64,000 nt of DNA. It comes from an uncultured Candidatus Saccharibacteria bacterium (lineage in GTDB: Bacteria; Patescibacteriota; Saccharimonadia; Saccharimonadales; JALRHH01). Below, piece after piece: positions 27,225 through 61,309 of this stretch. Numbering within the stretch: position 1 is the first letter of the stretch; the number at the start of each line of letters is the position of its first letter. Position numbers and translations under genes: made by a program. The stretch covers positions 1,304 through 65,303 of the forward strand of contig CAZXDT010000003.1 in the NCBI GenBank assembly GCA_964639295.1. Direction: 5' to 3'. The notes under the pieces are model-generated. The model did not search any database, was not told the DNA's origin, and was given only the letters and a program-made list of their open reading frames with translations.

Positions 27225-27246
27225 TAACTTGTGCGGACAACAGGTT

Positions 27247-27397
27247 CCACACTTGAGCCAATTTGGATTTTCTTCTGCGAAACGTAAAGGAAACGTATCT
27301 AAATACGTTGACTGCGTATCGTAAAGAAGAAAATTCGAAGTGGCCAAGAGGCCAGCGGGTCATGGGCTCCGCTCATGAGCAGGCTGGCCGGTGTGGG
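27247..27397 (+). ncRNA. Family-1 structured intergenic element, copy B
   Basis: CCACAC...GTGTGG closing stem; hairpin AACGTAT-ctaa-ATACGTT; terminal hairpin GGCCAGC..TCATGGGC-tcc-GCTCATGA..GCTGGCC. Confidence 0.6.
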
Positions 27398-36869: not shown

Positions 36870-36885
36870 ATCTCGAGGGGAGTCG
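36870..36885 (-). repeat. 16-nt copy of the tRNA-Glu 3' end (third copy)
   Basis: atctcgaggggagtcg is identical to 37402-37417 and 37585-37600. It lies 2 nt beyond the stop codon of 36888..37358. Confidence 0.85.
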
Positions 36886-36887
36886 TA

Positions 36888-37358
36888 TTATCTTTGGCCG
36901 CGAATGCGTTCAATAATGCTTGTTGTCGAGACGTCACCTTCCGTACGTTCAACAACTTGCAGATGTGATGGATCCATAATGTTCCAGAAACGTGGGTCCT
37001 CACCATCAGTCGCATATAGATCTGGCTGTAGCTGAGCCACGATTTCTGCATGCACTGGGTCGATTTCGTCTGGGGGGCTTGTAGCCGGGTCAACGAATAC
37101 ATAATCCACAATTTTAAGCGCATCAAGCATCTCTGCCCTTTCGCCTTCAGGAATAATTGGCCTATCATCACCCTTACGAGCCTTAACCCTATCATCACCG
37201 CTCATCATGACAACCATAATGTCACCAAGAGCCTTCACTGTATCCAAGTAGTGCTTGTGGCCAACATGAAGCAAATCAAAGGTACCACTTGTGAGGACTA
37301 TTTTCTCGTCTTTGTGTTGGTTACGAACTTCTGCTAGGTTTTCAAGTCGTATAATCAT
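36888..37358 (-). CDS. Cytidylyltransferase-family nucleotidyltransferase (HxGH type)
   Basis: SGTFDLLHVGHKHYL motif. Start set at ATG 37358 (6 nt after the -10 hexamer); the ORF track starts at 37364. Confidence 0.8.
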   Translation of the reverse strand: MIIRLENLAEVRNQHKDEKIVLTSGTFDLLHVGHKHYLDTVKALGDIMVVMMSGDDRVKARKGDDRPIIPEGERAEMLDALKIVDYVFVDPATSPPDEIDPVHAEIVAQLQPDLYATDGEDPRFWNIMDPSHLQVVERTEGDVSTTSIIERIRGQR

Positions 37359-37400: not shown

Positions 37401-37534
37401 GATCTCGAGGGGAGTCGAGTCACCTTCGGCGACCCCGCGACTTCTACCATGAAAGCACAGCTTTCAGGTGAAGATCACCTTGCGAATTGCCACTGGCAAT
37501 TCTCACCCTGTTACCGGTAACAGGAGTTCGAGTC
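37401..37534 (-). other. E1: tRNA-Glu 3'-half-derived composite module with an 87-nt structured insert
   Basis: Four parts: an inverted partial tRNA copy; a direct copy (palindrome CCTGTTACCGGTAACAGG, 37507-37524); the insert at 37419-37505; and an exact 18-nt tRNA 3' end at 37401-37418. Confidence 0.7.
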
Positions 37535-37808: not shown

Positions 37809-37959
37809 CCATACTTGAGACAATTTGGATGCGACTCTGCGGAGTACAAGGAGCCGTACTAAAGTACGGTGACTGCACCCCGCAAAAAGAGGCAAGTTCA
37901 AATGGTCCAAGAAGCCAGCGGGTCGCGAGCTCCGCTCGTGAGCAGGCTGGCTGGTATGG
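37809..37959 (+). ncRNA. Family-1 structured intergenic element, copy C (most divergent full copy)
   Basis: Closing stem CCATAC/GTATGG; stem GCGGAGTAC/GCACCCCGC; hairpin GCCGTAC-taaa-GTACGGT; terminal hairpin AGCCAGC..TCGCGAGC-tcc-GCTCGTGA..GCTGGCT. Confidence 0.6.
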
Positions 37960-51323: not shown

Positions 51324-51419
51324 TGTACGCCATAAGGTGTTGCAAGAACAGAGGTAAACTGATACAATCGTCTGGTCTTTTGGGTGTATTACTCAAAAAT
51401 GCACCACATAGTTCAATAA

Positions 51420-51496
51420 GGGCCAGTAGCTCAGCTGGTTAGAGCACCTGCCTCTTAAGCAGGGTGTCGAGGGTTCGAGTCCCTCCTGGCCCTCCA
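51420..51496 (+). tRNA. tRNA-Lys(CUU), CCA encoded
   Basis: Manual cloverleaf: GGGCCAG acceptor stem, anticodon loop CTCTTAA, T-arm GAGGGTTCGAGTCCCTC. Confidence 0.95.
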
Positions 51497-51500
51497 TAAT

Positions 51501-51529
51501 AAAACACCCTCCTCGCCGAGGGTGTTTTA
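51501..51529 (+). terminator. tRNA-Lys terminator (T1)
   Basis: ACACCCT-cctcgccg-AGGGTGT followed by TTTT. Confidence 0.8.
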
Positions 51530-51544
51530 TTATGCTGAGCTATG

Positions 51545-51688
51545 TGGACTCGAATTCTCGACACGCCAAAGGGTGTCGAGGTGAGAACTGCCTGTGGCAG
51601 TTCGCAAGGGAGCCAACTCTTGCAAACTGGTTTGCAAAGATGTTGCGACGGGTCGGCTGAAAGTCGGTCGAGTCCCTCCTGGCCCTCC
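51545..51688 (+). other. E2: tRNA-Lys 3'-half-derived composite module with an 86-nt structured insert
   Basis: Four parts: an inverted partial copy at 51545-51563; a direct 12-nt copy at 51569-51580; the insert at 51581-51666; and an exact 22-nt tRNA 3' end including CCA at 51667-51688. Confidence 0.7.
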
Positions 51689-51852
51689 AGATGGCTTGCG
51701 CAAACTCAATGTTCCTCCCGGCTCTCCAAGCATAAGCATCATAAAAGGCTTCTCGCTAGTAGGGGTAGCCGAGGGCTACAGAGTAATTTTACCGGGTTGT
51801 TCTAATACAACGCCCTTCATTAGAGAAGTCGAATCCTTGGTGTTTTTAACTA

Positions 51853-51881
51853 TTGACAATTTAACTTGCTTATGTTAATAT
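51853..51881 (+). promoter_or_regulatory. Sigma70-like promoter, leaderless layout
   Basis: TTGACA-17-TAATAT, then 6 nt, then ATG 51888. Confidence 0.65.
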
Positions 51882-51887
51882 GTTCTT

Positions 51888-52415
51888 ATGAATCAAGCAA
51901 ACTTTCCAGGCCCCAACCCTAGTGAACATCCAGAAGTTGCCGATAATCCAGAAGCTATGCAGCCCGCCACGGAAGCGAGCAAGCAAGCGTTGCTCGACCT
52001 GATAGCAACTAACCCAGCTGACGACCGAACGCTTGCCTTTGCGGAAGAAGCAAAAGGCAGAATACAAACTACAAACTTTCCAGAAGATGTTTTTCCCCGT
52101 CTAGCCAGTATTCGTCGTGTTGAATGGCCAGATAATACATATGGGAAACAGCTCGTAACTAACTATTCTATTGTTGCATCTCCGGATGGTCCGCAAATAG
52201 AAAAACACGTGCACACATTTGACCCAAGCACAGAACTGGCAAATATTGATACAAACGCTAATGATGGTTCCTCACTCCTTACTAGTGCTCTGATAAGGAT
52301 GAGAGCACAGCGAGCATCAAGTACCGATGAAGATGAATTAGGTTTAAGTTTTGTTTCTGAAGCAGAGACAAAAGCCCTGATAGCCTTACTTGAAGAAGCA
52401 CACCCTCTTAGCTAA
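51888..52415 (+). CDS. Hypothetical acidic protein (175 aa)
   Basis: ORF directly downstream of the leaderless-type promoter. No motif recognised. Confidence 0.7.
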   Translation: MNQANFPGPNPSEHPEVADNPEAMQPATEASKQALLDLIATNPADDRTLAFAEEAKGRIQTTNFPEDVFPRLASIRRVEWPDNTYGKQLVTNYSIVASPDGPQIEKHVHTFDPSTELANIDTNANDGSSLLTSALIRMRAQRASSTDEDELGLSFVSEAETKALIALLEEAHPLS

Positions 52416-54835: not shown

Positions 54836-55387
54836 ATGAACGAATCAAACCAAAACACCCCACAAACAGCTGAAACAGATCAAACAACTGTAGAAGCATC
54901 AAAAAACAATAAATTTAGGAAAGCCCTTACCGCTGCAGCATCAGTAGTTGCATTGACCGGCTTAGTAGGTGGCGCAGCACTTGTCGAACAGTCAAACGAC
55001 ACTGCCTCACATGCAGTTAGCGAAAAGCCAGCTCCAGCAAACCCAGAAGTTACAGCGCCTGAGAAGCAAGTAGTTGTTCCTGGTGAGACACTCACTGAAT
55101 TGCCTCAGCCGGTACAAGTAGAGTCAACACAGGATTCTAATGAACAGGTTCAAACACCTGCTGAAACCTCTGATGACAACAATGTTAAAGAGTCTAGAAT
55201 GCCAAGTGAACCAATGGTTACTGAACCTTCTGAACCGAAGATGCCAAGTGAACCAATGGTTACTGAGCCTACTACTCCTGAAGTCACACCAACGGATACC
55301 CCAACTGAATTTGTTTCAGATGGTGGTCCTACCGAAGGACCTACTGAGTTCGTATCTGATGGTGGTCCCGTAGAACCCAAGCAGTAA
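54836..55387 (+). CDS. Membrane-anchored Pro/Thr/Glu-rich protein with tandem peptide repeats
   Basis: TM segment (ALTAAASVVALTGLVGGAAL). Repeats MPSEPMVTEP x2 and PTEFVSDGGP x2. Confidence 0.7.
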   Translation: MNESNQNTPQTAETDQTTVEASKNNKFRKALTAAASVVALTGLVGGAALVEQSNDTASHAVSEKPAPANPEVTAPEKQVVVPGETLTELPQPVQVESTQDSNEQVQTPAETSDDNNVKESRMPSEPMVTEPSEPKMPSEPMVTEPTTPEVTPTDTPTEFVSDGGPTEGPTEFVSDGGPVEPKQ

Positions 55388-55404: not shown

Positions 55405-55432
55405 AAACGACCAGCTTACGCTGGTCGTTTTT
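55405..55432 (+). terminator. Hairpin terminator (bidirectional form)
   Basis: AAACGACCAGC-ttac-GCTGGTCGTTT followed by TT. Confidence 0.75.
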
Positions 55433-55523
55433 GGTACACCGGGCTGGGTAGTGCACATCTTTAGCCATGCTCGGTGCGAGCACCTGCGCGTGGCTTTGAT
55501 GACCGAACCATGGATCGAGTCCA
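55432..55523 (-). other. E3: degenerate second copy of the tRNA-Arg 3' part
   Basis: Contains GGACTCGA. CAGGTGCTCGCA resembles tRNA CAGGTGTCGCA. It ends CCGGTGTACCA, versus CCGGGTGTACCA in the tRNA. Confidence 0.45.
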
Positions 55524-55545
55524 GGCTCGATAAATCGAGTTGAAA

Positions 55546-55573
55546 TTAAAACCGCCCCCTTAGGAAGCGGCTT
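55546..55573 (-). terminator. tRNA-Arg terminator
   Basis: GCCGC...GCGGT stem followed by TTTTAATTT on the - strand. Confidence 0.6.
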
Positions 55574-55583
55574 AAATTTCACC

Positions 55584-61153: not shown

Positions 61154-61160
61154 CCAGCTT

Positions 61161-61309
61161 TCACACTTGAGCCAATTTGGATTTTGTTCTGCGAAACGTA
61201 AAGGAGCCGTACTAAGGTACGGTGACTGCGTCACGTAAAGAGGAAAATTCGAAGGGGCCAAGAGGCCAGCGGATGGCGAGCTCCGCTCGACAGCAGGCTG
61301 GCTGGTATG
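61161..61309 (+). ncRNA. Family-1 structured intergenic element, copy D
   Basis: TCACAC...GTATGA closing stem; GCGAAACGT/GCGTCACGT stem; GCCGTAC-taag-GTACGGT hairpin; GGCCAGC..CGAGC-tcc-GCTCG..GCTGGCT. Confidence 0.6.

Follow-up and report, generated by a model that had tools for sequence, protein, structure and literature searches.

What is a broken second copy of a transfer RNA (tRNA) 3' half, split in its T-loop by a folded insert, doing directly behind an intact tRNA-Lys gene? The question is raised by E2, a module in DNA from an uncultured Candidatus Saccharibacteria bacterium (GenBank assembly GCA_964639295.1, contig CAZXDT010000003.1). The stretch analysed, 64,000 nt in all, is called the window below, and coordinates are positions in it unless a locus is named. 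A first-pass annotation, made from the letters alone, had described E2 as an inverted partial copy of the tRNA, a direct 12-nt copy, an 86-nt insert shared with a second module of the window (E1), and an exact 22-nt tRNA tail. With moderate confidence, we read E2 as an integrated, gene-less miniature mobile element of a tRNA-targeting family found across the Candidate Phyla Radiation (CPR), which would have entered the T-loop of the resident gene and brought a replacement tRNA 3' end with it.

Anatomy of E2 behind tRNA-Lys

The intact tRNA-Lys(CTT) occupies 51420–51496 (+; ARAGORN; Rfam RF00005, 72 bits) and is the only tRNA that either source calls in the E2 region. Its final 22 nt, TCGAGTCCCTCCTGGCCCTCCA (51475–51496, +; repeat family D19), form the first copy of a direct repeat, and an intrinsic terminator, a hairpin with a T-run seen both in the sequence and in a terminator scan, lies immediately 3' of the gene (~51501–51528, +). 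After a spacer of 17 nt, E2 opens with an antisense 'clamp', GGACTCGAATTCTCGACAC (51546–51564, +), which equals the reverse complement of the uninterrupted T-arm (51464–51482) at 17 of 19 positions; this stretch with its two differences had no match in 100 shuffles. A short loop, GCCAA (51565–51569, +), leads from the clamp to the short direct arm, and GCCAAAAG-like loops are found again in tRNA-Lys modules from other genomes. The arm itself, AGGGTGTCGAGG (51570–51581, +), is a 12-nt copy of tRNA positions 51461–51472, that is, of the variable loop and the 5' strand of the T-stem.

The core, or insert, follows at 51581–51667 (+; covariance model R1, 89.8 bits, E=7e-23) and consists of three hairpins on the same strand: P1 (51582–51606), P2 (51609–51649) and, behind a GGG linker, P3 (51653–51667). 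Because G51581 is common to the direct copy and the core, the covariance model begins the core at that base (87 nt); the non-tRNA part proper is 51582–51667, 86 nt. The distal tail (51668–51689, +; D19) is the second copy of the direct repeat and runs as an exact 22 nt from T-loop position 55 through CCA. All the parts named at first pass are thus present, with coordinates off by one base in places: E2 ends at 51689, not 51688, because the exact repeat extends that far. In the minimum-free-energy (MFE) fold of E2 the clamp is able to pair with both tRNA-derived arms across the insert. E2 has no full cloverleaf; it holds tRNA positions ~42–53 and 56–77 only, with the T-loop interrupted. Beyond a gap of 22 nt (in the stretch 51690–51728) there is a third, degenerate copy of the tRNA-Lys tail (51712–51728, +; 14 of 17 positions; chance expectation for the whole window, 0.13). 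It is probably what remains of an older insertion that has been almost completely deleted.

The insert is indeed homologous in E1 and E2. A 30-nt shared core, GGTGAGAAyTGCCnGTGGCArTTCGCAAGG, occurs at exactly two sites in the window, in E1 (37478–37507, −) and in E2 (51580–51609), and never in shuffles, and a covariance model built from other genomes and run with filters off gives full matches in the window to E1 (101.8 bits) and E2 (89.8 bits) only. E1 is a sister module (37401–37534, −) behind tRNA-Glu(TTC) (37654–37580), with its clamp at 37534–37516, short arm at 37515–37506, core at 37506–37419 and an 18-nt tail at 37418–37401 (all −). The suspicion that the resemblance might be fortuitous can be set aside.

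Fold, strand preference and distribution of the core

We aligned 57 standard-length copies of the core (alignment A2) and folded them with RNAalifold. Three hairpins, P1–P3, surround conserved junction bases, and compensatory changes occur in 22 of the 30 pairs. Paired cells make up 95.4% in the alignment vs 74.3% in column shuffles, the covariation score is 0.537 vs at most 0.093 with slid partners, and P3 holds a G-U pair in 50/57 copies. The invariance of GTGAGAA, GC, GC and TTCGCAAG in A2 is partly forced by the search pattern; among copies recovered by the model or by the clamp pattern those P1 positions covary too (GAGGA/UCC, GAAAA/UUUU). The sense strand is more stable than the antisense strand in 46 of 49 core copies (mean 4 kcal/mol, p=4e-9). 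Together, the covarying fold and the bias in stability suggest that it is as a single strand, the one shown, that the core works or is selected, be it RNA or single-stranded DNA.

The clamp behaves differently from the core in this respect. When the arms are joined and the core is left out, the flanks fold into a hairpin across the junction, with the clamp pairing, in all 52 downstream modules (MFE), and a comparison of sense and antisense energies gives no strand bias for this hairpin (25/49, p=0.3). A count of 91 G-U pairs and 0 A-C mismatches in the clamp had seemed to indicate strand-specific selection, a reading that the energy test did not bear out, the bias being confined to the core. 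Being without strand bias, the clamp could equally be a DNA-level inverted repeat. In the folds it can join both tRNA arms in a single duplex similar to the T-arm on the chromosome, from which the core branches off. Rfam has no relevant match for E1 or E2 across the window at the gathering threshold, nor for 51380–51900 at E values up to 10.

A relaxed core-pattern scan, limited to one genome per species, returned at least 120 loci with 127 core matches, and the loci listed are nearly all from Saccharibacteria or other Patescibacteria (CPR). In the 692 kb of fetched loci the covariance model finds 122 full-length copies, often two to three per 8-kb locus. Among the 127 core matches listed, 58 lie 57–90 nt downstream of a tRNA on the same strand, which is the layout of E2, and 28 lie just upstream of a tRNA; most of the remainder lie at a contig edge or mark the distal end of a longer inserted stretch, and a few (L024, L108 and some others) have no recognisable tRNA context. 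The tRNAs belong to at least 16 isotypes, and in every case the arms correspond to the neighbouring tRNA. The tRNA-like flanks are therefore present at other copies and specific to each locus, as the first-pass annotation had supposed for E1 and E2.

This regularity bears on the suggestion that E2 is a plain attachment-site scar, in which the 86 nt common to E1 and E2 would be what is left of two related islands after decay to their termini, and its hairpins would be functionless. A repeat of the tRNA 3' end with an island-like variable region downstream is what such a scar would leave. We nevertheless consider it very unlikely, given the 22 of 30 compensated pairs, a fold kept in more than 100 copies despite sequence divergence, the sense strand favoured in 46/49 copies and the narrow tRNA-to-core gap of 57–90 nt in 58 modules.

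The position of the break follows a rule that differs between the two sides of the tRNA. In the ~50 downstream modules inspected, the left arm ends at canonical position 52–54 and the right arm starts at 55 or 56, in most cases continuing to the 3' end. Upstream modules mirror this layout: a long arm from tRNA position 1 to the break, the core, ~10 nt of further tRNA and, usually, an antisense turn-back. Their break points fall in the D-loop, the D/anticodon junction, the anticodon loop, the variable loop or the T-loop. The first-pass annotation had asked whether the break always falls between T-loop positions 54 and 55; it lies in the T-loop in all the downstream modules inspected, and the upstream ones break at other sites too. 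A GGT target duplication flanking the insert, also put up for checking, is not seen; across loci there is no target duplication, and two to three tRNA bases are missing at the break instead. The core is antisense in three tRNA-Phe loci (L009, L028, L068). An intact copy of the same tRNA adjoins the interrupted one in nearly every locus with enough flank, and the tails are often perfect over 21–22 nt through CCA. In total, 96 of the 150 tRNAs in the scanned loci, themselves selected for carrying a core, have one within 260 nt.

The shared insert is one of several that occupy the same place. Of the 48 core-less tRNAs in the fetched loci, around 15 show this architecture with an insert from a different family. 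At least three or four such families sit between an antisense T-arm copy and a tRNA tail, 40–200 nt downstream of tRNAs (L016, L027, L032, L035, L036, L037, L041, L051, L057, L084, L087, L088, L121). One of them begins GAAAACAGCCGGTGGCTGTTTGAGTTTTCCTTGCTTGGCC, and some retain a P1-like GCCnGTGGC hairpin. Judged by sequence, the constant feature appears to be a slot made up of a terminator, an antisense T-arm, a structured filler and a T-loop-to-3' tail. E3 (55430–55583, −), a module-like stretch behind tRNA-Arg(TCG) (55660–55584), comprises a terminator, hairpins, the motif GGTTCGGTCATC...GATGTGCACTACCC, then cccggtgtacca (the tRNA-Arg 3' end with one mismatch) and a terminator of its own. It has no match to model R1 and hence stands outside the E1/E2 core family; its motif and layout are common to a module behind tRNA-Pro in L032, which places it in another insert family. 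As E3 belongs to that other family, a downstream module is found at all three tRNAs of the window.

A sister family shares the P1 hairpin (GTGAGAAATGCTGGGAGCATTTCGCAAG) and has a different 3' part (...GGACAGnnCCTGTAAGG); its copies lie beside tRNA fragments, some of them antisense (L003, L004, L011, L019, L029, L047, L048, L091, L113; Parcubacteria, Kaiserbacteria and similar).

Proposed integration and its alternatives

How did the second tRNA 3' half arise? In E2 an exact 22-nt repeat of T55–CCA flanks the module and the intact tRNA-Lys is the proximal copy, and the same holds for ~50 related modules. Among the downstream modules, 30 have a tail that extends to the end of the tRNA; in 26 of these, the first 35 nt behind the intact tRNA and the first 35 nt behind the distal tail are different sequences. 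Often the two flanks are two distinct terminators, in some cases related ones that have diverged with compensatory changes. The tail is followed by a terminator-like hairpin in 19/50 modules vs 1/47 control windows, so that many tRNA/tail pairs carry two different terminators. That the sequences behind the two tRNA ends are usually unlike disfavours local tandem duplication as the origin. The interrupted upstream copies of L008 and L033 are diverged tRNAs with the same anticodon; that of L033 has self-consistent acceptor strands and that of L008 has kept a compensated anticodon stem. Differing 3' flanks, diverged self-consistent tRNAs and an orthologous locus that varies between relatives (L121 and L122, described below) all point to foreign DNA.

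Modules also accrete. Tandem arrays of modules with different cores occur in L017, L100, L130 and L136, and tails without insert or clamp are found at 36870–36885 of the window and in L078, L094 and L043, each beginning in the T-loop except that of L043, which begins in the acceptor stem. Complete modules, each with clamp, core, tail and terminator, stand head to tail in L100 (35–420), L130, L136 and L140; the third unit of L100 is split within its P1 loop by unrelated sequence.

Neither E2 nor any other part of the window encodes an integrase; larger relatives do. A large serine recombinase, with Resolvase, Recombinase and Zn_ribbon_recom domains, is encoded at 10 of the 120 loci listed, and its gene is convergent with the tRNA and abuts the tRNA 3' end. 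In several cases (L102 1891–3555, L078 1108–2673, L070 1494–3119, L106 4930–6009) the recombinase open reading frame (ORF) runs antisense into the tRNA gene and has a GFEPP-type C-terminal tail, which puts the attachment site at the 3' end of the recombinase gene or inside that end. In L102 a tRNA-Gln, the recombinase, three ORFs and a clamp, core and tail follow one another over ~4.3 kb, and in L017 a decayed recombinase lies between two modules.

In the explanation that we favour, the element would begin in the T-loop of tRNA-Lys and extend to where the insert ends (~51475–51667, ~193 bp). It would have entered the T-loop of the resident gene by Campbell-type recombination, either site-specific or driven by tRNA homology, a step that is inferred, as is its enzyme. 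It would have brought its own T-loop-to-CCA copy and terminator, in which case 51501–51528 is element-supplied, and the tRNA-Lys gene would stay intact because the element carries this 3' end and terminator of its own. The original 3' end would have been displaced downstream and would now be the 22-nt tail at 51668–51689. The sole conserved part would be the distal end, composed of the antisense T-arm, the 12-nt sense arm and the 87-nt core replacing T54/T55, and this end may act as a folded single strand of RNA or single-stranded DNA. The miniature copies are probably trans-mobilised or stripped-down relics, because the recombinase-bearing larger relatives end in the same structure. The core might be a cis-acting element or a small RNA that the element needs to propagate, which is a guess.

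The first-pass annotation had offered two options, that the insert entered pre-existing copies of tRNA 3' halves at the same nucleotide or that the module is rebuilt from the local tRNA. A metagenome scan for the clamp-loop-arm motif of tRNA-Lys returned 27 sites, of which 21 are genuine modules; all 21 continue into an insert, none into an uninterrupted T-arm, and an empty clamp scaffold was thus found in 0/21. Tails without inserts also lack the clamp and the short arm. The 3'-half copy is better read as part of the integration event, because of the differing flanks and terminators, the missing empty scaffolds and the tandem accretion. The sequence- or structure-directed mechanism that either option was thought to imply remains plausible.

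Several observations weigh against the integration of a unit as just described. No free or circular form was found, the core pattern has 0 matches in viral contigs, and the 64-kb window encodes no recombinase, the sole match being short, spurious and on a non-coding ORF that spans tRNA-Lys and E2. No sigma-70-like promoter was found for the module, so that any transcript of it would have to come from read-through at the tRNA terminator. In upstream and downstream modules alike, the core points the same way with respect to the tRNA, unlike a recombination arm site, and strand-specific covarying hairpins are not explained by a recombinase that acts on double-stranded DNA. A 5.3-kb recombinase island in L078 ends in a bare tail with no core; as some recombinase islands lack a far-end core, the core is not required for that type of integration. 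In L082, L097 and L114 an upstream copy of the tRNA (tRNA-Trp, tRNA-Leu or tRNA-Glu) holds two to three different inserts without clamps, in the D-loop, anticodon stem and T-loop, beside an intact copy. Variants of P2 recur with different tRNAs, and the core of E2 has a single mismatch over its first ~70 nt to the core at a tRNA-Leu in L023. The multi-insert dead copies, the antisense inserts and the shuffled P2 variants suggest that the core can move on its own.

This is the substance of a second explanation, in which the 87-nt core is a tiny autonomous or trans-mobilised element that inserts into tRNA-like loops, on DNA or by way of an RNA intermediate, and survives only in redundant tRNA copies or in fragments that other integrative elements have left behind. 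E2 would then be a tRNA-Lys 3' fragment that already existed when the core invaded it at T54/55. The dead copies with two to three inserts and no clamp (L082, L097, L114), the antisense copies in tRNA-Phe fragments (L009, L028, L068) and the near identity of the E2 and L023 cores despite different tRNAs all fit. So do insertion at the D-loop, the D/anticodon junction, the anticodon loop, the variable loop and the T-loop, boundaries exact to 1–2 nt in more than 100 copies, and the intact copy of the same tRNA that stands beside the interrupted one in nearly every locus with enough flank. An invader of this kind should leave empty clamp scaffolds (0/21), and the insert-less tails could not have hosted a T-loop insertion, because they start in the T-loop. 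Other insert families fill the slot, which points to the slot rather than the core as the constant feature, and no terminal inverted repeats, target duplication, associated transposase or reverse transcriptase, or common target motif was found. We regard the independently mobile core as possible and rank the unit module first, as an explanation about which we are evenly divided.

Specific mobile-element classes were considered as well. A transposon or miniature inverted-repeat transposable element was rejected, given that the core has no terminal inverted repeats, no GGT duplication is present and two to three tRNA bases are lost at the junction. A guide RNA of the TnpB/IscB type does not fit a long tRNA arm that lies 3' of the core downstream and 5' of it upstream, and no such gene is enriched near the loci. 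Hammerhead, hatchet and other small ribozymes, and IS91-type targeting of GTTC, had no supporting feature.

A more speculative reading takes the core, arms and clamp together as a new kind of structure-guided mobile unit. It might be a folded single-strand attachment site, or an RNA, that mimics the T-arm and so directs its element to the cognate tRNA gene, or else a small catalytic or processing RNA that homes to exposed cloverleaf loops; either could be retargeted by swapping the tRNA-derived arms. We give this reading a real but low probability.

Insertion at cloverleaf loops with several inserts per copy calls to mind archaeal multi-intron tRNAs, and the insert might accordingly be a true spliced tRNA intron. 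Archaeal non-canonical introns and split or permuted tRNAs have insertions in the D-, anticodon-, variable and T-loops, possibly several per tRNA; they carry bulge-helix-bulge junctions and are spliced from functional genes. The insertion loops are alike, whereas the bulge-helix-bulge and the splicing from a functional gene are not features of E2 modules: the motif cannot be drawn at the junctions, which sit at a multi-helix junction, and antisense copies exist. E2 lacks the entire tRNA 5' half, and interrupted copies are partial, with an intact copy alongside. In the same phylum, Patescibacteria tRNA group I introns are likewise insertions in tRNA genes; they are self-splicing, lie in the anticodon loop and interrupt functional sole-copy tRNAs (PMC13011429). 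The E2 core has only 87 nt, gives no group I or other Rfam match and resides in a non-functional fragment beside an intact tRNA. A spliced intron, whether of the archaeal or the group I kind, is the least probable of the explanations weighed here.

L122 (FolD 88% identical, same FolD–tRNA-Lys neighbourhood) has the same module with a ~70-nt internal deletion and a truncated tail, and in L121 (FolD 87% identical) another insert fills the slot; from these sequences the module appears to be non-essential and fast-evolving. It has to be weighed whether modules are instead host-beneficial genes for structured small RNAs at tRNAs, with tRNA-derived ends for processing or stability, acting as a decoy or regulator of factors that bind tRNA T-arms or 3' ends, or as a source of T-loop-to-CCA fragments. 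Strong strand-specific covariation, tails often perfect over 21–22 nt through CCA, an architecture kept across CPR classes and the high frequency of modules (3/3 window tRNAs; 96/150 tRNAs in core-selected loci) would agree with such a role. One would hardly expect a beneficial gene to have decayed in L122, the closest relative, or to have given way to another insert in L121; nor would one expect variable tail lengths and many degenerate copies. No promoter-like site was found; the three tRNA-Phe copies lie downstream of and opposite to their tRNA, with a bidirectional-looking terminator hairpin on each side in L028; and selfish DNA typically forms tandem arrays and recombinase islands. We consider a host RNA gene unlikely.

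Window context, known systems and significance

The neighbourhood of E1 holds further signs of activity at tRNAs. The insert-less tRNA-Glu tail mentioned above, CGACTCCCCTCGAGAT (36870–36885, −; repeat family D8), is the third at this gene, has the same T-loop start base and is without insert or clamp. Between it and the E1 tail lies a cytidylyltransferase-like ORF (37346–36890, −, 152 amino acids, PF01467) with a promoter-like sequence of its own, and the third tail begins right behind its stop codon. To judge from this arrangement, 36870–37346 (−) looks like a one-gene cassette at a tRNA hot spot. In L094, L115 and L051 an intact tRNA-Gln or tRNA-Pro stands between inverted repeats of 14–17 nt, one in the leader and one in the trailer (for example, GTTCAGCATTCTTCTCT ... 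AGAGAAGCATGCTGAAC), and a tail further downstream overlaps the short arm of the upstream interrupted copy by 5–9 nt; it looks as if a cassette with a complete tRNA had been inserted into the resident gene.

Elsewhere in the window, a ~150-nt repeat with covarying hairpins occurs in four copies (1510–1664, 27241–27395, 37848–37958 and 61155–61309; for example, GGCCAGCGGGTCATGGGCTCCGCTCATGAGCAGGCTGGCC), one of which lies just upstream of tRNA-Glu and is without an Rfam match. A coding sequence of ~1.7 kb is duplicated in tandem near the window start (63–2936; repeat families D1, D4 and D5), and the ORF that adjoins tRNA-Arg (55199–55368) contains short in-frame repeats rich in Pro/Thr/Glu.

Elements that integrate into tRNA T-loops and repeat the 3' end are well known, and integrase sublocations within tRNA genes were reportedly described by Williams in 2002. 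Folded single-strand attachment sites are known from integron attC and from CTX-phi attP, which are used by tyrosine recombinases and lack arms derived from tRNA. Here, too, an imperfect palindrome carried by the element could fold, the clamp and the two arms forming a target-like duplex; unlike those sites, the clamp hairpin has no strand preference, and a single-stranded DNA stage is hypothetical.

The closest layout is that of the Dehalococcoides ssrA islands, which insert mid-T-loop by means of the large serine recombinase DsiB and leave a ~20-bp direct repeat of the 3' end (PMC3146451). The recombinase, of ~540 amino acids, is encoded on the reverse strand next to attL; the islands occur in tandem, some are gene-poor and 'cis-mobilizable', and a conserved motif lies just upstream of the distal repeat (PMC3146451). 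The same layout is seen in L102, L017 and L078. Unlike in Dehalococcoides, many tRNA genes are targeted here and most copies are gene-less units of ~190 bp; the 15-bp motif has its counterpart in an 87-nt three-hairpin fold with an antisense T-arm clamp and a second tRNA arm by the repeat; and a mirror-image class duplicates the tRNA 5' part. Tycheposons integrate into tRNA genes, have partial tRNA snippets at their boundaries, occur in tandem and include cargo-only elements (bioRxiv 10.1101/2020.12.28.424599). They broadly share the architecture of tRNA-gene integration, boundary tRNA snippets and tandem elements, but they are 10–20 kb long and carry integrase and replication genes, and neither a structured insert in the tRNA fragment nor an antisense clamp has been described for them. 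In Rfam 15 and the literature searched we did not find the ~190-bp gene-less form, a covarying core that replaces T54/T55, the antisense clamp, the 5'-duplicating mirror class or the density of modules in CPR genomes; the related work found there comprised the Patescibacteria tRNA group I introns (PMC13011429) and general island papers.

CPR genomes are tiny, yet a large share of the tRNA genes in the loci examined carry modules. The modules account for many 'pseudo-tRNA' fragments and mark integration hot spots in Saccharibacteria. A conserved core with exchangeable flanks that match the target is what would be expected of a programmable insertion system guided by sequence or structure. If the modules are merely selfish, E2 and its relatives would still be an unusually compact (~190 bp) kind of integrative element, one that repairs the essential gene that it interrupts.

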